Assembly (NCBI GenBank): GCA_001792535.1
Contig: MGGS01000007.1
Coordinates: 44-64,043 of the forward strand
Source: Candidatus Woesebacteria bacterium RIFCSPHIGHO2_02_FULL_42_20
GTDB lineage: Bacteria; Patescibacteriota; Microgenomatia; UBA8517
Length of the DNA: 64,000 bases
Reading direction: 5' to 3'
In this document: positions 3,519 through 64,000 of the stretch, in pieces
Layout of the letters: the number at the start of each line of letters is the position of its first letter
Position numbering within the stretch: the stretch's first letter is position 1
The notes under the pieces: model-generated
Told to the model about the DNA's origin: nothing
Seen by the model: only the letters and a program-made list of their open reading frames with translations
Databases searched by the model: none
Translations under genes and position numbers: made by a program

Positions 3519-3520
3519 TA

Positions 3521-5509: not shown

Positions 5510-5591
5510 AAATAATAGGCACTTTGATTACAATTAATATATACAGGGGTCACGGCACATCAGAAAATGCTCCGCCCTTGGCTCCAGTTTT

Positions 5592-8011: not shown

Positions 8012-8012
8012 A

Positions 8013-14806: not shown

Positions 14807-14900
14807 AAACCCAAAACGCTCTTGTAGATCTGGGGGGTTACCAAACTCTAAACTATGTTCATCAAAAGCAGCCTACTCCCGTTTATACTCCGTGTCAGTT

Positions 14901-46525: not shown

Positions 46526-46527
46526 AA

Positions 46528-46710: not shown

Positions 46711-47817
46711 ATGAAAGTCGAAGTACTTCAAGAGAAACTGTCGAAAGCTCTGAATATATCCTCTCGGTTTATTGCCAATAGGGCACAGTTACCAATTCTT
46801 GCCAATGTGATGCTTGAAGCCACTAAAACAAAACTAACAGTGTTTGCGACCAATCTTGAAATGTCTTCTGTTGTTAGTATTGGAGCTCAAGTAAGTGTGC
46901 CAGGGAAAATTACCGTGCCCAGCCGGATATTATTTGACATTGTGGCGAATTTGTCTTCCGGAAAAGTGTTACTGGAAGCCCAGAGGGAACAATTGAAAAT
47001 GGAAGCAGGAAGTTTCAAAGGTAACGTAATGGGCATAAATGCTCTAGACTTTCCCAATTTACCTACCAGCCTTGGTAAATCAGCCTTTAAAATGCCCCAG
47101 ATTGAACTGATTAAATCGCTTACAAAGACCTTGTTTTGTGTGTCCGGTGACGAAGCCAGGCCGATTCTAACCGGTGTCTTGTTTGTTTTTAGTACAAATG
47201 GGTTGACTCTGGTTGCCACAGACGGTTTTAGATTGACCCTAACAAAGATTCCGGTAAAAACTGCAATAAAGGACATGAAAGTTGTTCTCCCCAAGGGGAT
47301 ATTAATAGAAATAGCCAAACAGCTTAAGTCGGAGCCAATTGGCGTGGAATTTAATCAAGAGAGTAATCAAGCCTTATTTGGCTTTGACGATATGGTGTTG
47401 TCTTCAAGGATAATTGAGGGGGAATTTCCTGACTATGAAAAAATAATTCCGAAAACTTCCAAGGTCACTCTGGCAGTGGACAAACAGGAGCTGTTGCAGA
47501 CGATCAAGCTTTCGAGTATTTTTGCGCGTGAGTCGTCAAATGTGATTAAAATGACAATCAACAAAGAGGGGATAACCATTTCTTCTGAAAGCGAAAAGAC
47601 AGGTACACAGTCATCGCAAGTGGATGCTAAAATTGAAGGCTTGGAAGAAAGTTTGCAGGTGGCTTACAATTTCAGATTTATTGAAGAGTTGCTTAATGTG
47701 ATTGAAGGCGATCTACTTAAAATTGAGCTTACGGACGGATCTTCACCGGGGGTTTTTAAGGACCCCAAAGATCCTGATTTTCTTCACTTGATCATGCCTG
47801 TCAAGGTTCAGGGCTGA
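46711..47817 (+). CDS. dnaN: DNA polymerase III beta sliding clamp DnaN
   Basis: MKVEVLQEKLSKALNISSRFIANRAQLPILANVMLEA... typical DnaN N-terminus. 368 aa three-domain length. Confidence 0.9.
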   Translation: MKVEVLQEKLSKALNISSRFIANRAQLPILANVMLEATKTKLTVFATNLEMSSVVSIGAQVSVPGKITVPSRILFDIVANLSSGKVLLEAQREQLKMEAGSFKGNVMGINALDFPNLPTSLGKSAFKMPQIELIKSLTKTLFCVSGDEARPILTGVLFVFSTNGLTLVATDGFRLTLTKIPVKTAIKDMKVVLPKGILIEIAKQLKSEPIGVEFNQESNQALFGFDDMVLSSRIIEGEFPDYEKIIPKTSKVTLAVDKQELLQTIKLSSIFARESSNVIKMTINKEGITISSESEKTGTQSSQVDAKIEGLEESLQVAYNFRFIEELLNVIEGDLLKIELTDGSSPGVFKDPKDPDFLHLIMPVKVQG

Positions 47818-48812
47818 GAGGAAATTGCCGGAAGATAGAACGAGATGTTTGTTGTCTTACCATAGAGCGAAACTTCACCATTCAAAAGAAGGATAGGGTA
47901 AAGATATTTGGATTTTACGTTATCTATTAAGTAAGCCAATTTTACGTTTGATATTTTTACGTTCTTTAAATCTCCAAGTTTTATTTCAACAAGGCCTTGG
48001 TTCCCATTATCTATACTTACAACTTTAGCTTCGTTTAGGGAGGAAATTATTTCGTCGTATTTTTTAATTTTATATCTGGTATCCGATTTAGATGTCCCCC
48101 CAAGTCTGTAAATGTCAACTCTAAAAACTTCGCCGTCGGGTAGTATCACGACGTTCACTATACTTGATAGTGGATTGTACGTTAATATATCAAATCCGCC
48201 AATTTTATATGTATAATTCACTTGGATTAGTTCAGCTTCAGCCTTTTCTGTTTGAGCCATGTGTTCGCCTTGAGGATCTTCTTTTTTCCAATAAACAAAA
48301 GATGAAAATTCAATCTTACCGCTGTCTAAGAGAGAGTGATTTAGCAAGAATTGTTTTCCTGTTTCAATTAAAGCATTATTGCTCAATTGTTTATTGATTC
48401 TATAAACGTCACTCTGTAGAGAGTATCTTATATGATTTTCTTGGGCATATATTGTAAGAAAATGTTTTTCTGTGCTTCCGAAAAACGTTTGTCCTACTCT
48501 AGTGTCGCTGACTTCCAACAGGTTCGTCTCGAGGTCAAAAGTTGATGCAATTTTTACAGCTTCGTCTTTAGTTATAAGAGGTGGAGTTGAAATTCCCAAG
48601 AGTGCGGCTGTTTGGGGTAAATTTAAAGTCACCTCCTCGATTTGGGTTTCGATTTTAGGGGTGTCTTTGATTAGATCGGGAAGTTCTATTTTGGGTATAA
48701 CAGTTGGTGTAACTGGTACAGGTTGGGTTTTGCGTGTTAACAAAACAATTGTAACGATAAAAGTAGACGCAAGAAGAAGTACAAGTAGGATTTTTTTATA
48801 TCTTTTTATCAT
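47808..48812 (-). CDS. Membrane-anchored hypothetical protein (334 aa), last gene of the T4SS-like minus-strand operon
   Basis: N-terminal TM ILLVLLLASTFIVTIVLL. No motif. Confidence 0.45.
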   Translation of the reverse strand: MIKRYKKILLVLLLASTFIVTIVLLTRKTQPVPVTPTVIPKIELPDLIKDTPKIETQIEEVTLNLPQTAALLGISTPPLITKDEAVKIASTFDLETNLLEVSDTRVGQTFFGSTEKHFLTIYAQENHIRYSLQSDVYRINKQLSNNALIETGKQFLLNHSLLDSGKIEFSSFVYWKKEDPQGEHMAQTEKAEAELIQVNYTYKIGGFDILTYNPLSSIVNVVILPDGEVFRVDIYRLGGTSKSDTRYKIKKYDEIISSLNEAKVVSIDNGNQGLVEIKLGDLKNVKISNVKLAYLIDNVKSKYLYPILLLNGEVSLYGKTTNISFYLPAISSQP

Positions 48813-48828
48813 ACTTAATCAGTATAAC

Positions 48829-50145
48829 TTAGGGAACATAACCGCATAAACCAACACCAGCAGAGTCGACACAACCTCTGAATGCTGACTCTGAGCTGAT
48901 CCCTTGTGGTCTGTATATATTTGGTTCCCACATTCTCAAACCGCCAAAATCATAGTGGATGTGTGCTCCTCTCGCTCCACCACCGGTTGCTCCACTGATC
49001 CCTATAGGATCACCAAGTTTAATCACTCCGTTTTGTGCAGTTACTACTTCAAGATGGGCATAGGTTGACCAGAATCTGACACCATTGCAGATTGAGGATA
49101 TTCTGACATAATTTCCGTAGCCCGCTCCTTCCCAGCCAACAGATGCTACACCCGAATGAGTGGCGACGACTTGTAAACCTGCTGGTGGTACGTCTACAGA
49201 TTCAGAAGGGTAATGTTGAGGACCAGGGCCCTGGCTAATTCTTAAACCCTGTCTTACTGGCCACGGTCCAGGACATTCATCAGGCGGATTTCCAATTCTT
49301 ACAGTTGCAGTACCCGACGCAGTGCTTCTGTTTGTACTGGTTCCCACCGGCGCATCTGCTGAAACAGTAAAAACATCAACAACTAGCGTGTCAGTATAAT
49401 CAGTAGGTGGCAGGGTAAAGGTCATTGTGTATGTAAAGGTAAAAGTGGTGCCGGCTGGTATGGCATCTGGTGGGTCCGGTATTGAGGCACTAGGACAGCC
49501 GGGGGGAGTCCCCCTGTTATTGTCCCAAATTACACTACATTCGTTGTTATAAGTTATGTTAGTTAGAGCCCCCTGTTTGGCTGTAATTTGAATAGTGTAT
49601 TGAACAGGATAGGGAAGTTGGTCATTGGTCAAAACCCTTGGTTCTGCGGTTTTAATAACGCGGATATAGGGTGACTCAACGTTTCCAGGAGCCTGCAAAA
49701 CTCCGCCAGTATAGGGAGGGACGATGTAGGCGCCCGAGTTGATGATAAATGAAATCGAAGGAACCAGTACAATAAGAGCGAGAATGGCAATCGCAACAGT
49801 ACCCAGTATAGCAAGGGGTATTGCCAGAAAAGCGCCGATAATTGCTAAAAAAGGGGCAAGAATGGCTGCAGCAATATGCTCTTTTTTCATCTTGCCGACA
49901 AGTTTTTCAACAGCCGCTTGTATGGCGGCTGCGGCTAAGGCGAGTCCTGCAGTTGCTGCTGCGGAAGCGGCGGTTGCGGCTACCTTTGCGGCCTGCGTAC
50001 CCATTTTAACGGCTTTAGCGGCGTTAGCAGCGGCTTTGGAAGCGTTTGAGGCGAGGTTTTTCCCGAGACTTTTTACGCCCTTTCCAGCCGCTTGTCCAGC
50101 CAGATCTCCAGCAGCGCTTTTTTGTTGCTTTTGTTCTTCAGCCAC
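48829..50145 (-). CDS. Membrane-anchored M23 (LytM-type) peptidoglycan endopeptidase with Ala-rich N-terminal region
   Basis: C-terminus GYGNYVRISSICNGVRFWSTYAHLEVVTAQNGVIKLGDPIGISGATGGGARGAHIHYD shows the full M23 signature including HxH. Central TM block AAAILAPFLAIIGAFLAIPLAILGTVAIAILALIVLV. Poly-Ala/Lys N-terminus. Overlaps virB4 by 8 nt. Confidence 0.7.
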   Translation of the reverse strand: MAEEQKQQKSAAGDLAGQAAGKGVKSLGKNLASNASKAAANAAKAVKMGTQAAKVAATAASAAATAGLALAAAAIQAAVEKLVGKMKKEHIAAAILAPFLAIIGAFLAIPLAILGTVAIAILALIVLVPSISFIINSGAYIVPPYTGGVLQAPGNVESPYIRVIKTAEPRVLTNDQLPYPVQYTIQITAKQGALTNITYNNECSVIWDNNRGTPPGCPSASIPDPPDAIPAGTTFTFTYTMTFTLPPTDYTDTLVVDVFTVSADAPVGTSTNRSTASGTATVRIGNPPDECPGPWPVRQGLRISQGPGPQHYPSESVDVPPAGLQVVATHSGVASVGWEGAGYGNYVRISSICNGVRFWSTYAHLEVVTAQNGVIKLGDPIGISGATGGGARGAHIHYDFGGLRMWEPNIYRPQGISSESAFRGCVDSAGVGLCGYVP

Positions 50146-52009
50146 TTTGTCCTCCTCGGTCTAATATTACACCGCCCTTGGCTCTCTGCTGCATCTCAAG
50201 CTTCTCCTGCGGCTTGGTGGTGACCAGTCTATGTTCTTGAGGAGAAGAAACGACTCTAATCGGTGCTCTGTGGGGTCCCGCAAAGAAGATCCCTTCTCCC
50301 ACATCAGCCGACATAAGGAGTTGTTTTTCTCCTTGAGACAGATAAAAAACTTCGGTAATCGAGTCCATAGCTGCAGCTGACTGTTTGAGTAAAAGCTTGA
50401 GCGAGGAATTGGTCAGAATTGCTTTACCCAAGTCGTGATTCAAAAAATCCTCAACGTCTTGGGTGATGGTGGTTAAGCCCATATAGTATTTTCTGGCTCG
50501 CTTCACCATTGACCACATAAAGGTAGCGGAATCCGGATGCCGCATCATCTGCCAAGCCTCATCGACAATCAAAATTCGCTTTTTAAGGTCTTTTTTGACT
50601 CTTGTCCAGACGTAGTCAAGAATGATAAACATGGCAATGGGCCGCAGGATGTCTTGCAGGTCGTTAACAGAAAAGACTGTAAAGGAATTGTCGAGCGAGA
50701 CATTTGTCTGTTTGTCAAACATGCCAACAAAGCTCCCTTTGACATATTTTTCAATTCTGGCAGCCAGGTCCAGTGCCTCGTTTGTTTCCATGCCGATGAG
50801 GGTTTTATAAAGGTCTTCCATCAAGGGTGGCTCTTTGTTTTGCGTTTCCGGATATTGGGTTATGCCTTTGTTGCGGTATGTTAGTACCAGCGCCCGGTCA
50901 AGCAATGCTTCACGAATAGGATCAAGCTCTCCCATGATTACTTTAAAAAGGGAATGCAGCGACAAAATTTTAAGGCCGAGCTGATTCTCACCTTCTTCAC
51001 GAACCTGTGCCAGGTCAAAAGGATTAATCTTGGACTGAGATGAGAACGAAAACGACACGTATTCACCGCCTACAGCGTCGCAAAGTGCCTTATATTCAAA
51101 TTCTGGGTCTAGTATTATAATTTCGGCGCCAAGCATCAAGGAACGCACTGCTTCCAGTTTTACGAAATAACTTTTGCCGGCGCCTGAAGTTGCAAAGACC
51201 GTCATGTTATAGTTTTCGAGAGAAAACCTGTCAAAGATGATAAATGAATCGTTTTCGGGATTAATACCATAAAGGACCCCCCTGTCGCTTGAGAGTTCGG
51301 TTGACGTGAAGGGGAAAGTTGTGGCGAGGCTGGTTGTGTCCATATTGCGTGTGACCGAGATTCTGTCTAAGCCAAGCGGCGATGTCGTCAGAAACCCGTT
51401 TTCTTGATCCAAAGCTGCCGTTCTACCGTTAATTAATAATGCACCAAGAGTGGAAAGAATTTGTTTAGAGACGTCATTTAGCTCGTCGATTGTCGCGGCT
51501 GGTATTGTAATGTAGAACGCAAACTCAAAAAATCGTTCAATTCCTTTGACAAGCTCTTCTTGCAATGCCTTTGCGTCATCAAGTTTTGCTTCGGTTGTTG
51601 CGTGGGCAATTCGGCCCCGCTCAATGTCGGTCTCGATTTCGGCTTCCATTTCCGTAATTTTTCGCCTAAGGTCGTCGAGAATTGTTTTTGCGTCGATAGG
51701 ATAGATATAGAAGGCGATATCCAAGGAACTGTCAAAATTCACGACAGGATCAAGCCAACCCGGGGAAACAAATCTAGGGTAACCCGATACATAAAGAGTT
51801 CTATAGTATTTACCGTTGATTATCAAGTAATCAAACTCTTCTTCAATCGTATTTGGAGAAATTATGTCAATGAGATAACTCTTTTTGGCAAGAAAATTGT
51901 CTACCGGCTTACCCATGGCTGGCTTGTATTGCTGGCTGTTAAGTTCGCCTGTTTGCCCTTTTTGCGCTGTGGTTTGAGCGTTAATTTGGTTTTGCTGGTT
52001 CGGGTTCAT
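50138..52009 (-). CDS. virB4: VirB4/TrbE/CagE-family type IV secretion ATPase (Gram-positive DUF87/AAA_10 type)
   Basis: Walker A FATSGAGKSYFVKLEA, Walker B RILIVDEAWQMM. 623 aa. Operon context with PrgI-like and a cell-wall hydrolase. Confidence 0.8.
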   Translation of the reverse strand: MNPNQQNQINAQTTAQKGQTGELNSQQYKPAMGKPVDNFLAKKSYLIDIISPNTIEEEFDYLIINGKYYRTLYVSGYPRFVSPGWLDPVVNFDSSLDIAFYIYPIDAKTILDDLRRKITEMEAEIETDIERGRIAHATTEAKLDDAKALQEELVKGIERFFEFAFYITIPAATIDELNDVSKQILSTLGALLINGRTAALDQENGFLTTSPLGLDRISVTRNMDTTSLATTFPFTSTELSSDRGVLYGINPENDSFIIFDRFSLENYNMTVFATSGAGKSYFVKLEAVRSLMLGAEIIILDPEFEYKALCDAVGGEYVSFSFSSQSKINPFDLAQVREEGENQLGLKILSLHSLFKVIMGELDPIREALLDRALVLTYRNKGITQYPETQNKEPPLMEDLYKTLIGMETNEALDLAARIEKYVKGSFVGMFDKQTNVSLDNSFTVFSVNDLQDILRPIAMFIILDYVWTRVKKDLKKRILIVDEAWQMMRHPDSATFMWSMVKRARKYYMGLTTITQDVEDFLNHDLGKAILTNSSLKLLLKQSAAAMDSITEVFYLSQGEKQLLMSADVGEGIFFAGPHRAPIRVVSSPQEHRLVTTKPQEKLEMQQRAKGGVILDRGGQSG

Positions 52010-52697
52010 TTTCCTCCCTTTCTATTCTTCGCTCGGTTAAAGTTCCGCTTTTTTCTTCTTCACCAATGTTATAGATTTGGTAAAAAAGCTCAACAAGTTG
52101 TGTAGTTGAAAGCTGTTTAAGCACAAGTCCGGCTCTTGAGGACTGGCGTATTAGGTGGTCTCTTTTTGGATAAAGGGAAACCTTGGCTTTTTTTACAACA
52201 TAATCCTTATTGTAAGGTAGTGGGCCCTTTTTTTTCTTTATGCTCGATGTAAATGATTTACTTAGCCCGAGCTCGAGTGCCGAAAAGGGTGCAACAATGA
52301 AAAACCTTTTTCCCAAAACCTGTTTTTTCTTTATAGTGTCTTTGATGAACACTTTGTATGTTTCCATGAGCGAAGCCAGTTTTGGACCTTTTATTTTTTT
52401 GGATTCTTGGTCTAGGTACATCAAGTAATTGGTAATGTCTTTTCGCTCAGACCGGATAACTATTTGGACAGGGAATGTTAGGCTGTTTAAAAAAGCTGCG
52501 TACGCCAGAATCACCGCTTTTTGCTCGGCAGGTGAGAGTAAACCGAAATTGAGTGATGTAGATTCTAAAACGATGCAGGCAGAGCCGTCTTTAAGGTAAA
52601 CAATGCCGTCTGATATTTCGGCTATAGGGACGTGCACCTGGGTCGTAGATCTGATTGGACTTTCTTTTACTTTAAACAGTGTTTTAATTAGGTTCAT
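51981..52697 (-). CDS. T4SS-associated hypothetical protein (238 aa), possibly a split N-terminal VirB4 domain or accessory factor
   Basis: Located between the PrgI-like gene and virB4, with a 29-nt overlap. ISDGIVYLKDGSACIVLESTSLNFGLLSPAEQ weakly resembles VirB4 N-terminal regions. Confidence 0.4.
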   Translation of the reverse strand: MNLIKTLFKVKESPIRSTTQVHVPIAEISDGIVYLKDGSACIVLESTSLNFGLLSPAEQKAVILAYAAFLNSLTFPVQIVIRSERKDITNYLMYLDQESKKIKGPKLASLMETYKVFIKDTIKKKQVLGKRFFIVAPFSALELGLSKSFTSSIKKKKGPLPYNKDYVVKKAKVSLYPKRDHLIRQSSRAGLVLKQLSTTQLVELFYQIYNIGEEEKSGTLTERRIEREENEPEPAKPN

Positions 52698-52699
52698 GC

Positions 52700-53647
52700 T
52701 TATTTTGCTCTCACCGCAATTGGAGGTACCAGCTCCCCTTCAGTTTTGAGTTTGATCGGCTCAAAGTCAAAACCTTCTTTTTCGACTAAGATTTTATAGT
52801 CGCCGTCGGCAAGGGGAGTAATCACCATAAAATGCCCCGCTTTATTGGATTTTAAGGCTCTGACAGGGCGACCTTGGTTATCTTTAATTTCAAGTATCGC
52901 TCCCTCGATTATTTTTTTGTCCTTGTCCATCACTTGGCCGACGATAGTATTGGGCAGCGTAGGCGGGCTTGGCGGGGCCGCATCTGGCGAGAATTGGGCC
53001 TGGGTTCCCTCTATTTGCCCCCTTGCAACAAGCGTTTGGTCGACCGCTTTAGTGGTAGCCTGGCCGGGTGGTGCTGCAGGCGTGCTTTCGGGAACCTTTT
53101 GTTTCTCAACTGCTGTGGGGACGCGGGAGGGAATAGCGCCGCTGATAGTGGGTACCGGCTGGGCAGACACTATTGGGTTGTGATGGAGCAAAAAGAGGTT
53201 TCCGATATTTTGCAAAATCGAGCGCTCTGACCGCTCCAAGTTTAGTTGTAAGTTAACTCTTGGCTCCTGGTTCGGTTGGATGTTTTCTGGACTGGTGGGT
53301 GTTACAGTTGTGACTGTTTTGGTTGGCTCCTGAAAATAAACAGGCTCTTTTTCTGTTTTTTTCCAGATAAACTCTGTCGGTGTATAAATTGCTTTAAAGA
53401 AAATTACAATCCAGGTTTCAAGTGGCCTGTCTTCGATGGTGAAAAAGGCGAAACCCACTCCGAGAAGAACAAACAGAGCAACAACTGGCCATTTGACAAT
53501 TGGTGGAAGTGGCGACGCGTAGGTGAGCAAGCCTAATACAACTCCCATCGCTACTTGGAAAAACTGCTTTAAGGTCATGTCGCCAACCAGCCTGAAGCTG
53601 TAGCTTGAGATTTGCTGCGGTATCGGGTGTTCCTGTTCAATTTCCAT
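52700..53647 (-). CDS. PrgI-family (VirB3-like) T4SS membrane protein fused to a C-terminal carboxypeptidase-regulatory-like beta-sandwich domain
   Basis: HPIPQQISSYSFRLVGDMTLKQFFQVAMGVVLGLLTYASPLPPIVKWPVVALFVLLGVGFAFFTIEDRPLETWIVIFFKAIYTPTEF matches the PrgI pattern (P.dIS.YE.K..G.lTlRQ..., second TM, G.P.E.W). C-terminus EGAILEIKDNQGRPVRALKSNKAGHFMVITPLADGDYKILVEKEGF resembles CarboxypepD_reg. Confidence 0.45.
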   Translation of the reverse strand: MEIEQEHPIPQQISSYSFRLVGDMTLKQFFQVAMGVVLGLLTYASPLPPIVKWPVVALFVLLGVGFAFFTIEDRPLETWIVIFFKAIYTPTEFIWKKTEKEPVYFQEPTKTVTTVTPTSPENIQPNQEPRVNLQLNLERSERSILQNIGNLFLLHHNPIVSAQPVPTISGAIPSRVPTAVEKQKVPESTPAAPPGQATTKAVDQTLVARGQIEGTQAQFSPDAAPPSPPTLPNTIVGQVMDKDKKIIEGAILEIKDNQGRPVRALKSNKAGHFMVITPLADGDYKILVEKEGFDFEPIKLKTEGELVPPIAVRAK

Positions 53648-53742
53648 GTTTCTCCTTCTAATTTACACCGTGAATAAAAGTTTTTCTACAGCTAGCTAAA
53701 AACCCTTGTGTGAATTTGCAGTTGCGGATATACTTTAGTTAT

Positions 53743-54156
53743 ATGGATCAGCAGGAAGTGAAAGCAAAGATTCAACAACTTAATGATGAGGCTTATAAAA
53801 GAGCCAAAGATAACGGCGTAGAATTAGATTTTACAAATGAAAGTGTAACTACAGTTGAAGCGATTTTACTCGAAATGTTTGAGGAAGCTCAGGGCTTGGA
53901 CTTAACCGAGCAAGACTATGAACGCATGGCCGAGGTTTGGGGGGCTTATTTGGGCGAGTCTTTAATCCGCAACCTCGGTAAGGGTTATTGGGACTTCGAC
54001 CAGGAAAGAAAAGCTTACGTTGTCCGTTTGGACGATTTATCTGTTTATTTTCCGACGGAAGTGTACCAGGTATTAAAAAGTGGGCTCGTTGAAAATGTGA
54101 TTGACCTTTATATTGACGTTTATAACCAACATTCTCCGGTTCCGATCCAACTTTAA
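53743..54156 (+). CDS. Hypothetical acidic protein P1 (~138 aa)
   Basis: Start at MDQQEV (the ORF-track GTG start at 53710 is also possible). No recognised motif. First gene of the plus-strand block inserted in the T4SS-like cluster. Confidence 0.4.
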   Translation: MDQQEVKAKIQQLNDEAYKRAKDNGVELDFTNESVTTVEAILLEMFEEAQGLDLTEQDYERMAEVWGAYLGESLIRNLGKGYWDFDQERKAYVVRLDDLSVYFPTEVYQVLKSGLVENVIDLYIDVYNQHSPVPIQL

Positions 54157-54286
54157 CCATTGATCTTCAGATTTTAGTAGTCTACTATCTTTGATTAGAG
54201 GTTGTGTTTAAGGAATGGGGTGCAAATCCCCAGCTGTGCCGCAACCGTAGAGCCGGAAAACTAGCAACCCTCTGGGCAGAAGGCCT

Positions 54287-55291: not shown

Positions 55292-55312
55292 GCCATGCTA
55301 TAATTCAGGTAT

Positions 55313-55564: not shown

Positions 55565-55571
55565 AAAACAA

Positions 55572-56226: not shown

Positions 56227-56229
56227 TTG

Positions 56230-56268
56230 CCAAAGTTTTCCTGTGGCGGAGTGTACGAAGGCTGTTGA
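56230..56268 (+). repeat. Direct repeat copy 2 (relic of the P2 3' end) immediately upstream of mntA
   Basis: See 55245-55291. Confidence 0.8.
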
Positions 56269-56287
56269 AAATGGTACCATTAGGGCA

Positions 56288-56599
56288 ATGAAAGTAAATA
56301 ATAAGCAGGAAATATTGGAATTACTAGCCGGGAATAAATCTACCTTTTCAGGTTATGGAATAAAAAGGATTGGTTTATTCGGTTCGTTTGCGCGTGGTGA
56401 GCAACACGAAGGAAGTGATATAGACCTATTAGTAGAATTTGATAAAAAGAAAAAAAACTTTAAGAACTTTATTAAGTCAGCAGAATATGCGGAAAGTCTC
56501 CTGGGAAGAAAAGTTGAATTTTTAACCCCCGAATCGGTTAGTCCGTATATTTTTCCCTATATAGAGAAAGAAGTAAATTATGTCCAAATCTCCGGTTGA
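56288..56599 (+). CDS. mntA: MntA-type nucleotidyltransferase antitoxin (second copy in window)
   Basis: IGLFGSFARGEQHEGSDIDLLVEF. The longest-ORF N-extension (MAECTKAV...) is the repeat relic, so the start is taken at MKVNNKQ. Confidence 0.8.
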   Translation: MKVNNKQEILELLAGNKSTFSGYGIKRIGLFGSFARGEQHEGSDIDLLVEFDKKKKNFKNFIKSAEYAESLLGRKVEFLTPESVSPYIFPYIEKEVNYVQISG

Positions 56600-56924
56600 A
56601 TACCTGAAACACATTTCAGATGAAATTGATTACTTGGCTGAAACTACGGAAAGTCTGAGTGAACCTGATTTTGCAAAAAACCTTACTTTACAGAAAGCCT
56701 TTGTTAGAAGTTTGGAAATTATTGGTGAGGCAGTTAAGAACTTGCCTGAAGATTTCAAAGTTAAATATTCGCAGGTAAATTGGAAGTCTTATGCAGGTTT
56801 ACGGGACAGGTTAATCCATCATTATTTTGGTGTTGACTACGGGATTGTCTGGGATGTGGTCAAAAACGAAGCACCGGCATTAAAAGAAAAAATTAGTAAA
56901 ATTATTGAAGTACTTCGTAAATAA
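56580..56924 (+). CDS. hepT: HepT-type toxin (DUF86; Rx4HxY), second copy
   Basis: GLRDRLIHHYFGVD. 114 aa. Overlaps mntA by 20 nt. Confidence 0.8.
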   Translation: MSKSPVEYLKHISDEIDYLAETTESLSEPDFAKNLTLQKAFVRSLEIIGEAVKNLPEDFKVKYSQVNWKSYAGLRDRLIHHYFGVDYGIVWDVVKNEAPALKEKISKIIEVLRK

Positions 56925-56977
56925 TAAATCGTATTTTGTGTTGTTTGTTTCTCCCCCGGCTGATATAATTTGGGTGT

Positions 56978-59269
56978 ATGGTAGATGTAGATGACGAAGC
57001 ATTGCTACGACAGCCTGAGAATGCAGAAAATGGTTCTGAAGAACAAAGGCGTCTTTTTATGTTCAGGCCAGAACTCTACACAGTAAATGGTGCTGATTTA
57101 ATTGAGAATGTGAAATCGGCCGAGATAGGCGAAAATGGCGACATTAGTGAATTAAGTGCTGCTGTAGACGAGGCTCTTGCTTATCAGGAAGGATTGGTGT
57201 TGGGATCAAGGCTTTCTTTGCTTGAAATAGACCATCCCTTGGCAGATGAGCTAATTCAGGCCGTTGATACTTTATATAAAATTACATACGATCCTCAAAA
57301 ACCGGCTCCCGATGAAATAGAAAAGATTAGGAAAGCAGACAAAAGAGGCATTTTAGACTATCAAGTTGTCCAAGACTTTGCTTTTGGGTTGGCATCGGCC
57401 AGAAAACAAGCGGAAGCTGATAATCCTACCGATACCAATCGGAGGGAGGAGCAATTTAGAGAAGCGCATAAAGTTATGGAAGACTCGTCCAGAACACTCG
57501 CCGAACTGTTAAGTGACGAGAGCCGTGCCACTCTAAATCTTTACAAGGACATGTTCACCAACGCGAGGACAATGATTGAGAGACCTGATCCCAGAGGCAA
57601 CTTGATGGATGCCATTGAACACGCTTTGTCAGAGCCTGTGCGGAGGGCAAAAGAGTATGCTCGTGATAGGAAAGGCTGGGCCGAGAAAGAAAAGAGGAAA
57701 AGAGTAAAACAATACACAAGGCAGAATATGGCCGACAGAAATCCAAGGACAAGAATGTCTGAAAAGGAGATACCTGCCCTGGTAGATCTAGAAATAGAGG
57801 AAGAGGAAGAGAAGTTGCAGCGGTATGCTGAAGCCGCTCCTCACTTAGTCCGAAAATTGGCTCATGTGACAGCAAGAAGACATAACGATGAAATGTTTAT
57901 ACACCGTACGCAAGTTGGTGGAGATAAAGACAATGAGCCTAAAACTAATGAATATATGTCTGGCAGAATTCCTTTAATTGACTCTGAAGACTTCATTGCT
58001 GAGTACAGATACTCCGGCGAGTGGGGCAAAAAGGTGGACACTGTCATGAAAGAAATGCTTTTTGTGGCTCTTGGGAAGTATGAAACAAACGACCCTAAAA
58101 CTAGCATAAGCAGAGATGCTTATATAGACGGATTTACTACGGATGCTTTTAAAGGGTGGCTTACACCGATGTTACGGAAAGCCGGTGGAGACATGAGTGT
58201 GGTCTGGGCAGCTTGGCGGAATTTATTAACAAGTGAGCTCTTACTACCGTTTACCATGAAGGTAGTAGATACAGAGGTCAAAGATAAAGATGGTGGAGTT
58301 CGTAGAGAGAAGTCTTATAAGTTTGCCGATCCCCCGATTGCTACAGATTTAGGATCGCATTTGTATTTTTTTGAGGAGCACAGGAGAGACGAAAGGGGAA
58401 TAGATCCGGATGGTATAAGGCATCCAAGTAGGCCTTATTCCCGAGTTTCTCATTTTGGACATCCTTTTAACATGGGCAAGATATCAAGAGGTGAGGATGG
58501 TGCACCAAAGCCGCTTGTAGGCTCTTACTTTGAAGGTGCCAAAGTCAAGAACTGGCCAACTGGTAAGACTGATAATTCTGGACAACCCCTAAAAGGTGAA
58601 ATGCCACTTTATAATATTTGGATGGGGACTTCGGTGAGAAAGATGCAGGAGATTAGAGGGAGAGGTTGGCAAATGAGTGACGAAACGATTTTTGATAAAG
58701 GGGTTAGTCTTGCAGATAAGAAATTTCCCTTTGATGATACTGAAAAGCGCGATCCTAAAGACGCAAACGAGCCCGGTTCGGCTTCTTTTACTGCTTGGTA
58801 TGTTATTATAAGGTCTAGATGCGCCCAGATCAGAAAGATGATTTTAGGGTTTCCGCACGATGTAAAAGACATGGAGGGGACGACATTCCAGGAGGGTTTC
58901 CGAGCATTGGATAAGATGAATATGGTACGCCCCGACCACGAAATAAATCCAGATGACTTAGATCCCAAAGACCCTTCATTGTGGTTTCTGGCAAGTGTCT
59001 TGATATACCTTCACCCTGAAACCGCTGCACAATTGGAAAAAAGAGATTTTATGGTAAAATCTCGTATCGGTAAGCATAGGTTGTATAAATCCATAGCTCC
59101 GCCAATAATAGGTAAGACAGCACCGGTTCCCGCAGCCAGTGGAAGGACAGACGTGGTGAGTATGTCATCGGGTAATATCTACGAGAATTGGCAGACAGTA
59201 GGCTTGATTGGAGGCAACAAGAGAGCTTGGTTGGCCAACAATATCTTGTCGGAAACCCGGTTCACATAG
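56978..59269 (+). CDS. Large hypothetical soluble protein P3 (763 aa), no recognisable domain
   Basis: Uninterrupted ORF, GC-richer by eye. Acidic N-terminus, Lys/Arg-rich segment (KEKRKRVKQYTRQNMADRNPRTR), EEEEE tract, His-containing patch RHPSRPYSRVSHFGHPFNMG. No Walker A, HUH, DDE or RT motifs found. Confidence 0.5.
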   Translation: MVDVDDEALLRQPENAENGSEEQRRLFMFRPELYTVNGADLIENVKSAEIGENGDISELSAAVDEALAYQEGLVLGSRLSLLEIDHPLADELIQAVDTLYKITYDPQKPAPDEIEKIRKADKRGILDYQVVQDFAFGLASARKQAEADNPTDTNRREEQFREAHKVMEDSSRTLAELLSDESRATLNLYKDMFTNARTMIERPDPRGNLMDAIEHALSEPVRRAKEYARDRKGWAEKEKRKRVKQYTRQNMADRNPRTRMSEKEIPALVDLEIEEEEEKLQRYAEAAPHLVRKLAHVTARRHNDEMFIHRTQVGGDKDNEPKTNEYMSGRIPLIDSEDFIAEYRYSGEWGKKVDTVMKEMLFVALGKYETNDPKTSISRDAYIDGFTTDAFKGWLTPMLRKAGGDMSVVWAAWRNLLTSELLLPFTMKVVDTEVKDKDGGVRREKSYKFADPPIATDLGSHLYFFEEHRRDERGIDPDGIRHPSRPYSRVSHFGHPFNMGKISRGEDGAPKPLVGSYFEGAKVKNWPTGKTDNSGQPLKGEMPLYNIWMGTSVRKMQEIRGRGWQMSDETIFDKGVSLADKKFPFDDTEKRDPKDANEPGSASFTAWYVIIRSRCAQIRKMILGFPHDVKDMEGTTFQEGFRALDKMNMVRPDHEINPDDLDPKDPSLWFLASVLIYLHPETAAQLEKRDFMVKSRIGKHRLYKSIAPPIIGKTAPVPAASGRTDVVSMSSGNIYENWQTVGLIGGNKRAWLANNILSETRFT

Positions 59270-59277
59270 TTTTCTTA

Positions 59278-61128
59278 TTAAGCTACATCCTCTTTTTTAG
59301 TTACTGGTTTGGAAGCGGTTGTAGAACCTTTTCCTTTCTGGCCAAATTTAGGCATTTGGAACGGTGCCAACGGCGTTCCGGCTTCTTTTTCTTCACCTGG
59401 CACTTCCCTTCGCCACCACTGCGCTGCCGTTCCGGCTTTTGTACCAAACTTACCCACTCCTCCAACTACGGACCCTAGAACAGCTGACCCCTTGAGTCTT
59501 GTGCTGAATCTGGTTTTTGCTCCAGAGATACGTGTTCTTGCTGGTTCTGTGGCTCTTGCTACATAACCCCCTGCCCTTGTTCTTGCAAATCTTCCGCCAA
59601 CCCAACCGGCGGCTCCGCCGACAACAGCGGAAGTTGCGCTAAGGCCTGGAATAAGCCCTTTCAAAGTTCCGCCCGAAGTTCCAAATCTCATAAATCTACC
59701 CATGGCTTCACCGCCAAAACCTTTACCAACAACTGCACCAAGAGCAGCGGCGCCCAAGAGCTCTCCCCCATACTGGCCGCGAATGCCCAGTATAAAGTTT
59801 TTAGCCGCTTGGGAAAGGCTGGGCGTTGCTATCATTGTTGCCAGCCCTACCAAAAAGCCTATCGTAGCTGTGTCGCCAAAGCTAAACCCCGGGAGAATAC
59901 CCGTCCCTCCGACACCAGCCAACGAAAGTATATAGAAAGGATTGATCATTGGCCAGGTTTGAAGCACGCCGTAATACCCGTCCGGTGCCATTCCCCAAGC
60001 AAAAACATGGGCAGCAAAAACAAGGAAAGTTGCCATTACAAACACGGACAGGTTTGCGATAACGTGCTTCAGCCAGAAAGTGAAGCCGATCTGTTGGGCA
60101 ATTAATCCGCCCAGAATTATGAACGGGCCCGCAATGATCATAATCAAAAGCGTCGCATAGGCTTTAAGAAGCGTCCAGAAAATCCTGAATATGGTAATGA
60201 ATATTACCAAAAATAGGATTAATGACAGGATAAAATCCATTATATTACATAGAAGTGGAACTCTGGTTATTACACAGGCAATGCCGCCATATAATGTCGA
60301 TCTAATTATAGTGAGCCATGCGTAGGCGATAGTTCCACCGTTGATGTCTTGCAGTCTTGTGAAGGTAAATGAAGCTGCTCCTGTGGGGTCTAGTAAGCCT
60401 GAAGCTCTGGCAATTGAAACAACAATGCCTTGGGTAAGAAAGGCAAGATCGACCAGAAGCCCGGCGATTGCATAAGAAAATGTTATTAAAATAAGAACCA
60501 TTGCAATTTTAGGGATAGCTGACTGAATAGTAATCACAACTCTGGGCGCTATTTGAACCCGAAACATGATCAAGAATGCCATGATAATGATTACAAAGAT
60601 TAGGAATGTGTATGCAACGTTTCTCGTAGCCAACCACAAGGCTCTTGCAGGGACTAATGCGGAACTATAACCAAATCCTTGAGCGTTGGCCTCAGGGATT
60701 AGATGCAGGTCGGCAGCTGTGCTGGCAATATATTCGAGCCCGGACGCTGGTTTTTGATTGAGCAGAAGATCAGCGTATGATGCCAGCGAAAGGAGCGCAC
60801 CGGGGCTCTTATTACTGCTAATGGCCCCCGACCCTGGAACAAACATATCAGCGCACTCTGGTATTGTTTCAAAAATGCCATCTGAGACGTCAAGGCAGCG
60901 GTAAACGTCCATCGGTATAAACCAGAAGATAATGCTCATTATTATCCATCTGGTCTGTGCATAGGTGTACCTTTCACCGTATACTTCAGCGTCAGGAGGC
61001 TCTGCCACCCGATCGGCAAACTCGCCCATACTAGGTTCCCACCAAGTCTGTGCGATGGCTGTTGTGGGGAGGAACAGAGTATGAAAAGCAAAGGCTGCCA
61101 GAAGGACGATAAAGACCGATTTTTTCAT
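59278..61128 (-). CDS. Polytopic membrane protein with signal peptide, extracytoplasmic N-domain, ~6-7 TM helices and Gly-rich C-tail; VirB6/TrbL-like T4SS channel candidate
   Basis: 616 aa. Signal peptide MKKSVFIVLLAAFAFHTLFLPTTAIAQ. Multiple long hydrophobic helices. C-terminal GxGG-rich low-complexity region. Placement next to pilin-like genes and T4SS operon supports a VirB6-type role, with no strict motif. Confidence 0.4.
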   Translation of the reverse strand: MKKSVFIVLLAAFAFHTLFLPTTAIAQTWWEPSMGEFADRVAEPPDAEVYGERYTYAQTRWIIMSIIFWFIPMDVYRCLDVSDGIFETIPECADMFVPGSGAISSNKSPGALLSLASYADLLLNQKPASGLEYIASTAADLHLIPEANAQGFGYSSALVPARALWLATRNVAYTFLIFVIIIMAFLIMFRVQIAPRVVITIQSAIPKIAMVLILITFSYAIAGLLVDLAFLTQGIVVSIARASGLLDPTGAASFTFTRLQDINGGTIAYAWLTIIRSTLYGGIACVITRVPLLCNIMDFILSLILFLVIFITIFRIFWTLLKAYATLLIMIIAGPFIILGGLIAQQIGFTFWLKHVIANLSVFVMATFLVFAAHVFAWGMAPDGYYGVLQTWPMINPFYILSLAGVGGTGILPGFSFGDTATIGFLVGLATMIATPSLSQAAKNFILGIRGQYGGELLGAAALGAVVGKGFGGEAMGRFMRFGTSGGTLKGLIPGLSATSAVVGGAAGWVGGRFARTRAGGYVARATEPARTRISGAKTRFSTRLKGSAVLGSVVGGVGKFGTKAGTAAQWWRREVPGEEKEAGTPLAPFQMPKFGQKGKGSTTASKPVTKKEDVA

Positions 61129-61180
61129 TAGAATTAATTTAATACCATACCGGTTAATTTATCAATTATCAATTTAATAG

Positions 61181-63526
61181 TTAACCGCAGCAGACGCTGT
61201 TGCAAACGGCAGAGCATTGTGCGCCTGTTTCGGATGCGTCGCGTCTTACGCACACATTAGGGTTTGCGTAATAGCACCCATTGAAATCCGGATCGTCGTA
61301 AGTGTCAGGATCCCAGGTCTGTCTGTTGAGCCATTTGCATCCTGTCGAGCAATCTGCAGTTGGTACCGAGCATGGGGGAACATGATCAGTATAGTCTTTT
61401 GCCGGGCCCCATTCATAGGGGTTGCAACGCCTGCTTTCGCAGACAGGGTCTGTACAAAGTGTGGAGCTGTTAACCGGCTGCGGTCCACCGTATGAGGCGA
61501 TGGTGTCTATAGGGCAGTCGCCCCTTGGGTTACTACCTGAGTCATTTGTAAGAATTTCTTGGCATCTTCCACCGGGCACAAAATAATCGCACGAGCTGGT
61601 AACAGGATTCCAGTTGCAGGCGATAGGAAGTACAGCAGGCGGCGGTCGGCTTGCGAGTTGGCGGACGCGAGCCGAACTGGAATAGGGCAAAAGAGCTTCT
61701 CGGATACCTATCAAGAAATATTCGTAAATGCCTCCCAGGTGGGGATAGAATATGTCGGCGCGAGCCCCGGACCTTGTGAAGTTCCCTGCAAAAACTTGAA
61801 TATCAAGGTCGGTGGAGCTGTAGTTGGCTGTAGTTACTCCCGGCAGATCAAGTATTTCAAATGCTAATGTACCGATGTCGTCGGGAACGGGAATTATTCT
61901 AGGATAAATTCTTCTGAACACCGATTGCCTGCTTTCAACTGACCTTCCCCAGATTTCATCAAGTAATGGAGTCCTGGTATAGACCGAAAAAGGCGCGGTG
62001 GCAATTAGCACATCACAAGGAGGTATTGTACAAATTGCCGAACATTCGTTTCTACAATCGGTATATTCTGTTGCACAGCCAGCAATACATGTGACATCTC
62101 CTCCACAGGTGTTTTCACAATTTGTTCTTTGGGTTATACAGGTTGAGTCGCAAGCTGAAAAACACTCTGCTTCGCCGCAGTATTGAGTTCCACCCAAAGC
62201 AAAACAGGGTTTTTCGAAAGTACACTCAAAAGTGGAGGTGTAGGAAAAATCTCCGCTTATGTCCGGTTGTGGACTGATTTCGCCAAAGACATCGTCGCCA
62301 GTATTCCATCTCACGTTTGTCAGATCGCACCTATTCGTATTATAGTAGAGCTCGTCCCTGACTTCGGTGTAATTTACAGATAATTGCAGCGGCAGATAAG
62401 TTTGCGAAAGTATGTCAAGTAGGTCTCTGGATTCTTCCAGGTGGGAAAGGTATAGCCAGTCAATATCTCGGTCGGTAAATGTGTTATCAACAAATTCCAT
62501 TGTTGGGCCATAAATTTGAATATTGTCCGCATCAGACGGCGGTTGCGGGGGTTGAACTGGTATTGGACCTGTTGCTGCGTTTTGAAGATCTATTCCTCTG
62601 TATGTTTCGACAGACGAAGTCCTGTCCTCGGTAGACGACAATGGTACCAATGGAAAAGAGCTGATGAATGGTCGATCAATCCAAAAATCACCATTTAGAT
62701 AACTGAGCGCGCTAACCATTGGGAGGTAAATATCTGTAGTTCTTCTTTCTACGCTTCCCGGTACACCGCAAGGTACGGGACCCCTGAAGGGACCTGAAAC
62801 CAGCTCGCATTCCACTTTTTGGTTGTGTCTGGAGTTACCTGTCCTGTCTGCGGCGGCGATTTTATCGCGAAGCAGAACCTGGATAGGAAGAAGCTTGTTT
62901 AACGGTCCTGAATAAGTAGAAATTAGTCTGGCGCACTCGTCTGGGTCATATGACCCGCCAGTTAAAGATGAACACACTGAGTAGAAATAATCCGTTTCTT
63001 CCATGCGAAACATGGGCCCGTTCAAGTACCAGCTGACATACTCGGCTGTTCGGCGGTTATAAGCTAGGTTTTCAGGCTGTGGGTTGCCGTTGTTGACTTG
63101 ATTTGGAACAAGTTGTGTATTGCCCATGATGGGCAGCTCTGCATCGGCAAGATTGACTGAGGTTTGATAAGTTGACGGTCTCTCGTAGTAGCAAGTAAGG
63201 GTGGTGGCACTGTCTACACAGTAGACTGTGGTGTTTGCACCACCAGCCGGGGTTACTTGAAAAGATTCTAATCCAAGGTAGTCGTTTCCGCAGTAGAGCC
63301 TTGCAGGTTCAAGTGGGCGGCTCCAGGGGTCAGTCAAAACAGGAGGGGTTCCACCGAATTCACACGGACTTGCTTGATAAGGCCGCAGGGTGTGAAATTC
63401 TGGACTGCGAACGTCGCTGCAGCGGATGTAAGGCGGGGGAATCTGAGCGCTCACGCGACCAAATGATTTATGATAAATGATGTACGAGGTAAGAATGAAT
63501 ATAAAAAACAAAATCTTAAATCTCAT
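61181..63526 (-). CDS. Large secreted Cys-rich surface protein (781 aa), hypothetical; possible adhesin / pilus-tip component of the T4SS-like system
   Basis: Signal peptide MRFKILFFIFILTSYIIY. More than 50 Cys, many in CxxC/CxC clusters. No TM after the signal. Confidence 0.5.
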   Translation of the reverse strand: MRFKILFFIFILTSYIIYHKSFGRVSAQIPPPYIRCSDVRSPEFHTLRPYQASPCEFGGTPPVLTDPWSRPLEPARLYCGNDYLGLESFQVTPAGGANTTVYCVDSATTLTCYYERPSTYQTSVNLADAELPIMGNTQLVPNQVNNGNPQPENLAYNRRTAEYVSWYLNGPMFRMEETDYFYSVCSSLTGGSYDPDECARLISTYSGPLNKLLPIQVLLRDKIAAADRTGNSRHNQKVECELVSGPFRGPVPCGVPGSVERRTTDIYLPMVSALSYLNGDFWIDRPFISSFPLVPLSSTEDRTSSVETYRGIDLQNAATGPIPVQPPQPPSDADNIQIYGPTMEFVDNTFTDRDIDWLYLSHLEESRDLLDILSQTYLPLQLSVNYTEVRDELYYNTNRCDLTNVRWNTGDDVFGEISPQPDISGDFSYTSTFECTFEKPCFALGGTQYCGEAECFSACDSTCITQRTNCENTCGGDVTCIAGCATEYTDCRNECSAICTIPPCDVLIATAPFSVYTRTPLLDEIWGRSVESRQSVFRRIYPRIIPVPDDIGTLAFEILDLPGVTTANYSSTDLDIQVFAGNFTRSGARADIFYPHLGGIYEYFLIGIREALLPYSSSARVRQLASRPPPAVLPIACNWNPVTSSCDYFVPGGRCQEILTNDSGSNPRGDCPIDTIASYGGPQPVNSSTLCTDPVCESRRCNPYEWGPAKDYTDHVPPCSVPTADCSTGCKWLNRQTWDPDTYDDPDFNGCYYANPNVCVRRDASETGAQCSAVCNSVCCG

Positions 63527-63527
63527 A

Positions 63528-63827
63528 TTATCCAGGTATATTAAACGTTAATATTGAATTTACTCCGGTAAAGACGGCAATGAGTCTTAGGATCAAATAG
63601 GCTATGGCTATAAAAACAAGGCCGCCCACGGCCCAGGTAAGCACCCCTTGAGCTTCGGCGACTTTTTTTGGGTCGCCACCGCTGGTTATGAATTTAAAGC
63701 CTCCCGCAATTAACATTATAAAAAATACCACTCCTGCCAAAGCAAGGACGCTTTGTATTAAAAAGCCAAAAACAGTTTCCAGGTCTTTTAGAGTCGAAGC
63801 GTTGGTCAAATTAAGAGGTGGCATCAA
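63528..63827 (-). CDS. Small two-TM pilin-like protein (VirB2/TrbC-like candidate)
   Basis: 99 aa: hydrophilic leader, TM1 (VLALAGVVFFIMLIAGGF), short basic loop (SGGDPKKVAEAQG), TM2 (LTWAVGGLVFIAIAYLILRLIAVF), fitting VirB2-type topology. Confidence 0.35.
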   Translation of the reverse strand: MMPPLNLTNASTLKDLETVFGFLIQSVLALAGVVFFIMLIAGGFKFITSGGDPKKVAEAQGVLTWAVGGLVFIAIAYLILRLIAVFTGVNSILTFNIPG

Positions 63828-63879
63828 CTATAATTTTAGATAGCGAGAAGAATAATAGCAAGTAAGTTTTTTAAAGAAG

Positions 63880-64000
63880 CTAAAGTATATTGGGTATCGT
63901 AAAATTGAGCAGACTTACCCCAAACACATTCTGAACCAGGATTATTATTAACCATGCTGCAAAAACTATGATCAAGCCGATCAATGCCGCCGTGATTCTG
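63880..64000 (-). CDS. Partial ORF (C-terminal part): tandem paralog of the small pilin-like protein
   Basis: Reverse translation ...ITAALIGLIIVFAAWLIIILVQNVFGVSLLNFTIPNIL* resembles the C-terminus of 63528-63827 (...LVFIAIAYLILRLIAVFTGVNSILTFNIPG*). Runs off the window. Confidence 0.3.
   Translation of the reverse strand, partial: RITAALIGLIIVFAAWLIIILVQNVFGVSLLNFTIPNIL

Follow-up and report, generated by a model that had tools for sequence, protein, structure and literature searches.

The 64,000-nucleotide stretch analysed here (the window), from contig MGGS01000007.1 of Candidatus Woesebacteria bacterium RIFCSPHIGHO2_02_FULL_42_20, carries a type IV secretion system (T4SS) gene cluster at 47808-64000. 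In all likelihood, this is the vertically inherited, origin-side chromosomal T4SS of Patescibacteria (Candidate Phyla Radiation, CPR), found here in a member of the Woesebacteria (Microgenomates). The system was very probably derived from monoderm conjugation machinery (mating-pair formation class MPF-FATA, CD1110/PrgI type) with loss of the DNA-processing parts. An initial annotation of the sequence had proposed a T4SS-like cluster with Gram-positive-type components. Its core holds and agrees with a survey of Patescibacteria (Quinonero-Coronel et al. 2025, PMC12102498), with the genetics of Southlakia (Wang et al. 2023, PMC10633639) and with a 2025 review (PMC12857230). Listing and translation of the open reading frames (ORFs) recovered every gene that had been placed. 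A T4SS of this kind, with pilin arrays, without relaxase and close to dnaA, has already been published (PMC12102498, PMC10633639) and is ordinary for the lineage. The genes form two minus-strand operons that both point to dnaN and the replication origin (oriC) (Table 1). The distal operon runs from 11 VirB2-like pilin genes through the gene of a 781-aa Cys-rich secreted protein to that of a 616-aa VirB6-like polytopic protein. The proximal operon encodes, in this order, a PrgI/VirB3-like protein with a beta-sandwich domain, a TrsD-like protein, VirB4, an M23 peptidase and a YycI/YycH-like anchored protein. It is very compact: its five genes either overlap their neighbours, by 8 or 29 bp, or lie 2-17 bp apart.

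The 623-aa VirB4 scored 376.5 bits against the CD1110 family model of NCBIfam (NF045971, cut-off 325), over profile positions 180-735 of 752. Pfam P-loop_TraG matched with 105 bits, AAA_10 matched as well, and 4ag5, the solved structure of a VirB4 ATPase domain, was matched at 4e-49. Both Walker motifs, A (GAGKS) and B (IVDEAW), are intact. The VirB4 assignment of the initial annotation is thus borne out by NF045971, P-loop_TraG and 4ag5. The protein lacks the usual N-terminal domain and aligned to positions 271-888 of 894 of the VirB4_plasma profile. The 238-aa product of the overlapping gene upstream matched VirB4_plasma at positions 100-285 (E 8.7e-8), TrsD (NF041427, E 3.4e-5) and CD1110 at positions 11-108 (E 0.016). 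It also has a weak precomputed match to PF26593 (TraC-like). Because these profile ranges directly precede those of the 623-aa protein, the TrsD-like protein is the N-terminal domain of VirB4, split off as a gene of its own. The gene that had been listed as encoding an accessory protein is therefore real, and its label is replaced. A comparison by hhalign gave no match between the TrsD-like family profile and the VirB4 of the window, as expected for complementary parts of one protein. With full-length Firmicute VirB4 the alignment was collinear and non-significant (E 0.1). When the PrgI and TrsD family profiles were searched against PDB sequences, only weak beta-sandwich matches were obtained. 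The TrsD-like gene adjoins virB4 in 70-71 of 80 loci. Here and below, counts out of 80 refer to the best 80 of 272 Patescibacteria relatives from a VirB4 scan with one genome per species.

The first gene of the proximal operon encodes a 315-aa membrane protein, in which a linker rich in Pro joins the PrgI-like part (residues 8-90) to the CarboxypepD_reg beta-sandwich at the C-terminus (residues 234-294). Both domains fell slightly under the Pfam cut-offs in the window protein, with 22.5 bits for PrgI (PF12666, cut-off 27) and 29 bits for CarboxypepD_reg. Among 62 homologues, PrgI was detected in 60 (best E 4.7e-11) and CarboxypepD_reg in 55. Because of these frequencies, the fusion is a fixed feature of the Microgenomates class and no oddity of one genome. 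The fused architecture had been recognized in the initial annotation and is carried by the homologues. The judgement that the fusion and the tandem VirB2-like genes are unusual did not hold. Both are typical of the lineage, since 55 of the 62 homologues contain the beta-sandwich domain and pilin arrays of 2-11 genes have been reported, particularly in Microgenomatia and Saccharimonadia (PMC12102498). Genes of PrgI-like homologues adjoin the TrsD-like gene and virB4 in 65/80 loci.

The relatives of VirB4 revealed how the locus is inherited. All of the best 80 derive from metagenome-assembled genomes (MAGs) of Microgenomates or other Patescibacteria and are 57-90% identical to the window protein, with a Woesebacteria sequence from the Rifle aquifer as the top match. 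The best plasmid homologues, from Firmicutes and Actinobacteria, are 28-36% identical. PrgI, the TrsD-like protein and VirB4 occurred together in 65-71 of the 80 species loci. In 57-59 of the loci, virB4 was separated from dnaA/dnaN by 0.2-8.8 kb, with a median of 3 kb. VirB4 identity followed DnaA identity (Spearman 0.83, n=58). Mean conservation was 63.7% for VirB4, versus 47.9% for DnaA and 36.6% for DnaN. Because of this correlation, and because VirB4 is better conserved than DnaA and DnaN, the sequence comparison indicates that the T4SS locus is a vertically inherited, strongly constrained core function and no mobile element.

The position beside the origin was supported by several features. 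dnaA and dnaN were identified by Pfam matches, and the 3' ends of dnaN and of the last gene of the proximal operon share 10 bp. Five TTATCCACA-like boxes (at most one mismatch) lie within 155 bp in the dnaA-dnaN spacer, which is likely oriC. This cluster includes the sole perfect DnaA box (TTATCCACA) of the whole window, in which 27 DnaA-like boxes were observed versus 15.5 expected. The lowest point of the cumulative GC skew lies at about 43-45 kb of the window. Because of the DnaA-box cluster and the skew minimum, the T4SS cluster is truly beside the origin, in agreement with the origin-proximal place downstream of dnaN that had been annotated. Both operons (47808-53647 and 59278-64000) read toward oriC at about 46.5 kb and would be head-on to the replication forks, if these start at the DnaA-box cluster. 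The convergence of virB4 and dnaN was likewise found in most related loci.

Some features of the locus would fit an integrated conjugative element (ICE), or a decayed remnant of one, that came to lie near the origin by chance. The order of VirB4, PrgI and hydrolase genes is collinear with Firmicute conjugative modules, toxin-antitoxin modules occur inside and beside the locus, and an insert differs in GC content from its surroundings. We regard this explanation as extremely unlikely. The locus occupies the same chromosomal place beside dnaN/dnaA in 57-59 of 80 species, the divergence of VirB4 tracks that of DnaA, and VirB4 is the more conserved of the two. All genes are intact and tightly spaced, no integrase, relaxase or coupling protein was present among the scanned ORFs, and the toxin-antitoxin genes belong to a lineage-specific insertion that is absent from the closest relatives.

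DNA-transfer genes were searched for on both sides of the cluster. In window positions 1-45000, 20 of the larger ORFs (178-809 aa) were scanned. They have housekeeping and type IV pilus functions, and neither a relaxase nor VirD4 was among them. A JGI contig (L081) is 100% identical to window positions 51181-64000 and extends 9526 bp past the window end. These additional 9.5 kb held no relaxase, coupling protein or integrase. Among the ORFs scanned over about 73 kb there was no relaxase with oriT, no VirD4/TcpA-type coupling protein and no integrase. Without a relaxase or coupling protein, the cluster is probably no classical conjugative element. The initial annotation had seen neither a relaxase nor VirD4 and had concluded the same, and this stands for the scanned ORFs of the window and of the extension.

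Most likely, the T4SS would therefore mediate contact-dependent exchange with a host cell, either protein export or acquisition of host macromolecules, and not conjugation. This assignment is based on the missing relaxase and coupling protein and on the analogy with Saccharibacteria, in which epibiotic growth requires the T4SS and its pilin array. In Southlakia, transposon sequencing (Tn-seq) revealed that the T4SS and the pilins are needed for this growth, and protein export or another non-DNA role was proposed (PMC10633639). The 2025 review repeats essentiality and role from the Southlakia work (PMC12857230). Tubular structures at a parasite-host interface have been described in a preprint. 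The same absence of relaxase and type IV coupling protein (T4CP) from the scanned ORFs would also suit a machine that imports DNA, like the ComB T4SS of Helicobacter or the archaeal Ced system, and that feeds a nucleotide-auxotrophic cell or serves natural transformation. VirB4 is weakly similar to the import ATPases CedB (E 1.5e-14) and CedD (1e-7). Nucleotide synthesis is missing in Patescibacteria, and uptake of host RNA has been proposed in a preprint, possibly with T4SS pili at the interface. However, the CedB similarity reflects the generic VirB4 ATPase core, and CD1110 scores far higher (376 versus 54 bits). Competence of Southlakia requires type IV pili and ComEC, and a comEC deletion is viable whereas the T4SS is essential (PMC12857230). 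The locus showed neither a DNA-binding component nor a nuclease. DNA import is thus unlikely, and host-cell exchange remains the preferred function.

The pilin array starts beyond the window and ends within it. The last pilin, of 98-99 aa, has two transmembrane helices and scored 34.2 bits against T4SS_pilin (PF18895, cut-off 26.6), with a weak match to NF045849 (mycoplasma ICE pilin-like). The partial gene at the window end provides the C-terminal 39 codons of a 111-aa paralog, as seen from L081. The tandem pilin-like genes with two transmembrane segments, including the incomplete copy, had thus been correctly recognized. On L081 the full array comprises 11 paralogs, ten of 98-122 aa and one of 284 aa, which are 21-44% identical to the first one. 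Four of five array pilins scanned passed the PF18895 cut-off, and the 284-aa pilin was slightly under it (25.6 bits). This protein (L081 5616-6470, about 3.1-3.9 kb past the window end) has a signal peptide, an N-terminal region with 28 Cys and a C-terminal pilin domain. It may represent a pilin whose head is rich in disulfides. Two adjoining 111-aa pilin genes at L081 8970-9647 are near-identical and share 90% of nucleotides at the 3' ends. The sequence varies between populations, and a sibling contig (L082) has one pilin copy fewer than L081. Just upstream of the pilin array and on the same strand, L081 2328-5575 encodes two soluble proteins of 936 and 144 aa, which are highly charged, contain no Cys and matched no known domain. 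Beyond them lie an AbiEii/DUF6922 pair and an AAA_14 ATPase.

Between the pilin genes and the VirB6-like gene lies the gene of the 781-aa protein, which contains 40 Cys and a signal-like N-terminus and lacks a transmembrane anchor. It is thus secreted and Cys-rich, as had been annotated. The alignment of 17 homologues (563-1253 aa) has about 17 conserved Cys columns, and the gene takes this place in most related loci that have it. Neither Pfam nor NCBIfam gave a match. The protein is a candidate surface, tip or adhesin component. Together with the 11 pilin paralogs, one of them with a Cys-rich head, and with the lack of a coupling protein in the scanned ORFs, it would be compatible with an attachment pilus only. 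Such a VirB2-type fibre with Cys-rich adhesins would hold the cell on its host and move no substrate. The window also encodes a type IV pilus (PilB, PilC, PilM/N), however, which is the adhesion and motility organelle of Saccharibacteria (PMC12857230). Because type IV pilus and T4SS are independently essential in Saccharibacteria, the two are likely to have distinct roles. We therefore consider a purely adhesive role quite unlikely for this T4SS and retain exchange with a host cell.

The 616-aa polytopic protein had been called VirB6/TrbL-like. It has a signal-like N-terminus, about seven hydrophobic helices and a disordered tail rich in Gly, Ala and Lys. All profile tests by sequence failed. 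Neither the protein nor 25 homologues matched a TrbL/VirB6 or PrgH profile, and there was no match of the protein in Pfam or NCBIfam. The family profile found nothing among PDB sequences. An hhalign comparison of the family with the protein encoded upstream of PrgI in a Firmicute plasmid was negative. Of 217 homologues, the listed ones are unannotated, and the few that are named come from Microgenomates/Patescibacteria MAGs. In the AlphaFold model the transmembrane core (residues 160-450) has a pLDDT above 90. When the model was compared with 350,542 PDB chains, the top five hits were TrwI/VirB6 of R388, with weak scores. The helices thus agree with the former label, the sequence profiles do not, and a weak fold similarity remains. 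VirB6 is the best available reading of the model and is not proven.

The 438-aa M23 protein is membrane-anchored, with hydrophobic segments at residues 55-73 and 117-135. Its M23 domain scored 35.9 bits (PF01551, cut-off 28.7), and weak matches to MepM and ShyC were obtained. Between 32 and 47 of 52 homologues share residues D318, H364, H395 and H397, and members of the family are present in 52 of the 80 VirB4 loci. The protein would be a peptidoglycan hydrolase and a functional analogue of VirB1, as predicted from its domain match and as the initial annotation had it. In other Microgenomates lineages (L062, L073, L075, L078 and similar), the M23 protein has grown to 1100-1500 aa.

The last gene of the proximal operon encodes a 334-aa protein with a single transmembrane segment (residues 8-26), in accordance with its earlier description as anchored. 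The ordinary homologue search gave four proteins, even with a profile query, so that an exhaustive representative search was used instead. This revealed 1342 representatives of about 330 aa. The AlphaFold model built from this deep alignment has a pLDDT of 93.6 and a pTM of 0.85. Its top fold matches in the PDB were 5coz, YycH (9a5d_B) and YycI (2o3o), with E 3e-7 to 2e-5 and target TM-scores of at most 0.56. YycI was matched at about 2e-6 with a target TM-score of 0.55 and YycH at 1.5e-6, and 5coz is an uncharacterised Eubacterium protein. There was no sequence match to YycH or YycI in Pfam. We also considered the protein as the missing VirB8 (NTF2-like). This was rejected, as the confident model fits YycI/YycH and no VirB8, PrgL or TraM was matched. 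Among the Microgenomates relatives the 334-aa gene always directly follows the M23 gene, in both gene orders that occur. Because of this constant adjacency, a functional pair is suggested. In the L062, L073, L075 and L078-type loci, the pair is located upstream of PrgI and not downstream of VirB4, and moves as a unit. YycH and YycI, regulators of the cell-wall kinase WalK in Bacillus, share with the 334-aa protein the N-terminal anchor and the extracytoplasmic fold (E 1.5e-6 to 2e-5), and the gene of the 334-aa protein is coupled to that of a cell-wall hydrolase. In contrast, the protein has no Pfam-level match to them, and the locus showed no kinase of the WalK type.

We compared the locus with known systems. 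In the Patescibacteria survey, VirB4 formed a monophyletic clade with a relationship to MPF-FATA and was most often accompanied by TrsD. The survey also described homologues of PrgI/VirB3, M23 or lysozyme enzymes in place of VirB1, a near absence of relaxases and closeness to dnaA/dnaN (PMC12102498). The locus resembles the systems of this clade and that of Southlakia epibionticum (SEML1_0006-0019, PMC10633639) in its MPF-FATA-like VirB4, the adjacent TrsD-like and PrgI/VirB3 genes, the tandem divergent PF18895 pilins, the M23-type hydrolase for VirB1, the absence of relaxase and coupling protein from the neighbourhood and the place at the dnaA/dnaN side. There are also differences. VirB6 was reported to be scarce in Microgenomatia, whereas a divergent candidate was obtained here by fold. 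Only 22.6% of the Microgenomatia VirB3 homologues were VirB4-associated in the survey (PMC12102498), whereas the PrgI-CarboxypepD_reg gene is adjacent in 65/80 loci here. In the searchable literature we did not find the class-wide PrgI-beta-sandwich fusion, a Microgenomatia VirB6 candidate, the YycI-like partner of M23, the Cys-rich 781-aa protein, the Cys-rich-headed pilin or the hypervariable slot described below.

The conjugative MPF-FATA systems of Firmicutes (CD1110/CTn2; pCF10 Prg/Pcf) share the CD1110-family VirB4. On the Brevibacillus plasmid NZ_CP144923, PrgI, VirB4 (CD1110) and a large cell-wall hydrolase follow in the same order. This comparator has a relaxase and a coupling protein, whereas no relaxase, MobC or VirD4/CD1115 was found here. 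VirB4 is split in the window (238 and 623 aa), PrgI carries a 220-aa C-terminal extension, and the hydrolase belongs to M23 and not to NlpC/P60, CHAP or SLT. VirB2-like pilins, which are generally lacking in Gram-positive systems, are present. The locus is chromosomal and vertically inherited and not carried at variable positions by plasmids or ICEs. With the VirB systems (MPF-T) of R388 and Agrobacterium, it has in common pilins that are two-helix transmembrane hairpins like VirB2. The transmembrane core of the 616-aa protein had its best, weak fold match in TrwI/VirB6. In the virB operon, the VirB5 gene lies directly upstream of VirB6. The gene of the secreted 781-aa protein takes this same position upstream of the VirB6-like gene. 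In contrast, the outer-membrane core of VirB7, VirB9 and VirB10 is missing here, as are VirB11 and VirD4. There is no sequence similarity to VirB6 or VirB5, and the 781-aa protein, compared by sequence and position alone, is far larger than VirB5.

The two operons are separated by a region that had been described as a foreign block. This held for 53710-56924. There, toxin-antitoxin genes (DUF433 paired with the PIN-like DUF5615, a HicA-like ORF, and MNT paired with HepT) are accompanied by two unknown ORFs, one of 148 aa and one of 334 aa whose C-terminus is Cys-rich. The MNT protein matches PADLOC PDC-S09. The segment has a lower GC content (0.39-0.41). These genes are absent from the closest related loci, where the large slot gene alone fills the gap. 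Because of this, the segment is a lineage-specific insertion, outside the secretion system. At 55572-56226, the 159-aa DUF5615 protein has a weak HicB-like C-terminal part and is overlapped by 50 bp by the 74-aa HicA-like ORF, which is absent from the public gene calls of the identical contig. This stretch may be a decayed or rearranged HicAB module.

The description as foreign did not hold for the adjacent gene, convergent with the VirB6-like gene, which encodes a soluble, highly charged protein of 763 aa. Both flanking genes, the VirB6-like and the PrgI-like one, were present in 27 loci, and in 26 of these an ORF of at least 500 aa lay between them in the same orientation, usually as the sole gene in the gap. 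The slot is thus conserved and its content is hypervariable. The slot proteins are all soluble, Cys-poor and 25-36% charged, and fall into at least eight clusters. Iterated hidden Markov models and hhalign joined two of these only (96.5% probability) and left the rest unlinked. The 763-aa protein had no match in Pfam, NCBIfam, PADLOC, phage or plasmid collections, and those of related loci (L002-L054) had none in Pfam, PADLOC, phage or plasmid collections. A short acidic N-terminal motif, '(M/I)-(S/T)-P-E'-like, occurred in 13 of 24 slot proteins versus 18% of control ORFs, with a pattern that was set post hoc. On the sibling contig L082, a 25-bp deletion (window 58513-58537) shifts the frame of the 763-aa gene and leaves ORFs of 222 and 528 aa. 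Slot proteins might be translocated substrates (effectors), with the C-terminal beta-sandwich of PrgI/VirB3 as a cytoplasmic receptor that replaces VirD4. We consider this improbable.

A working mechanism can be proposed from homology to conjugative T4SSs, established T4SS biology and Saccharibacteria genetics. A VirB4 hexamer would dock on the membrane via PrgI/VirB3 and the split N-terminal domain and would power assembly. The VirB6-like protein would form the membrane platform. The pilins would polymerise into a pilus or tube, and the Cys-rich proteins would act as adhesins at the surface or tip. The M23 enzyme would open the cell's own wall, possibly under control of the YycI-like partner.

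Several points weigh against this picture. The function of the T4SS, including cargo and direction, is derived solely by analogy. We know of no Woesebacteria cultured with a host. No VirB8-like component was found in the locus. The match of the 616-aa model to TrwI/VirB6 has E-values of 0.017-0.07 and target TM-scores of 0.36-0.45, at probabilities of 0.93-1.0. The first zinc-ligand motif of the M23 protein (HxxxD) is atypical in the spacing from H311 to D318, and H311 is present in 11 of 52 homologues. The beta-sandwich of PrgI may lie inside or outside the cell. Finally, many distant T4CP homologues exist in Patescibacteria (PMC12102498), and a coupling protein could sit elsewhere in the genome.

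Table 1. Positions of the T4SS genes and of other features in the window
Feature	Position	Strand	Assigned by
Anchored protein, 334 aa, YycI/YycH-like extracytoplasmic fold	47808-48812	-	AlphaFold model
Membrane-anchored M23 metallopeptidase, 438 aa	48829-50145	-	PF01551
VirB4-type ATPase (CD1110/MPF-FATA type), 623 aa	50138-52009	-	NF045971, P-loop_TraG, 4ag5
TrsD-like protein, 238 aa (gene overlaps virB4 by 29 bp)	51981-52697	-	Profile matches
PrgI/VirB3-like protein, 315 aa	52700-53647	-	Pfam and homologues
Lineage-specific insertion	53710-56924	+	Pfam, GC content, comparison with relatives
Slot protein, 763 aa	56978-59269	+	Conserved position
Polytopic membrane protein, 616 aa, candidate divergent VirB6	59278-61128	-	Fold similarity
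Secreted protein with 40 Cys, 781 aa	61181-63526	-	Sequence features
VirB2-like T4SS pilin, 98-99 aa	63528-63827	-	PF18895, two transmembrane helices
Next pilin paralog (111 aa), C-terminal 39 codons	63880-64000	-	Sequence and contig L081
dnaA	45137-46525		Pfam match
DnaA-box cluster, likely oriC (context, outside the secretion system)	46491-46646	.	Box count
dnaN	46711-47817		Pfam match
PilM/PilN fusion (type IV pilus)	711-2129	-	
475-aa protein with CarboxypepD_reg domain (type IV pilus cluster)	2091-3518	+	
PilC/T2SSF (type IV pilus)	6794-8011	-	
PilB/T2SSE ATPase (type IV pilus)	8013-9692	-	

Other features of the window were recorded as well. The type IV pilus cluster (183-9692) lies within about 40 kb of the T4SS, on the opposite side of the origin. 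A second, weaker M23-like protein of 340 aa is encoded at 14748-15770 on the plus strand (27.3 bits, slightly under the cut-off), and a DUF4012 protein of 809 aa at 30226-32655 on the minus strand. An Rfam scan of the window detected no RNA family. In a scan for transcription signals, terminator-like sites were modestly over chance (26 versus 17.1, SD 4.0) and promoter-like sites were at chance level. Because of these counts, the scan could not delimit transcription units.

A large part of bacterial diversity belongs to the Patescibacteria, which apparently live on other cells. The T4SS of Saccharibacteria is the first of its superfamily found essential to survival of the bacterium carrying it. 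Our findings leave the published picture of the Patescibacteria T4SS unchanged. The window provides a complete Woesebacteria example and fills gaps that were noted for Microgenomatia, with a candidate divergent VirB6, a VirB4-adjacent PrgI/VirB3 with a beta-sandwich extension, an M23/YycI-like pair and an 11-gene pilin array with a Cys-rich-headed member. In addition, the hypervariable slot could be mined for candidate T4SS substrates.

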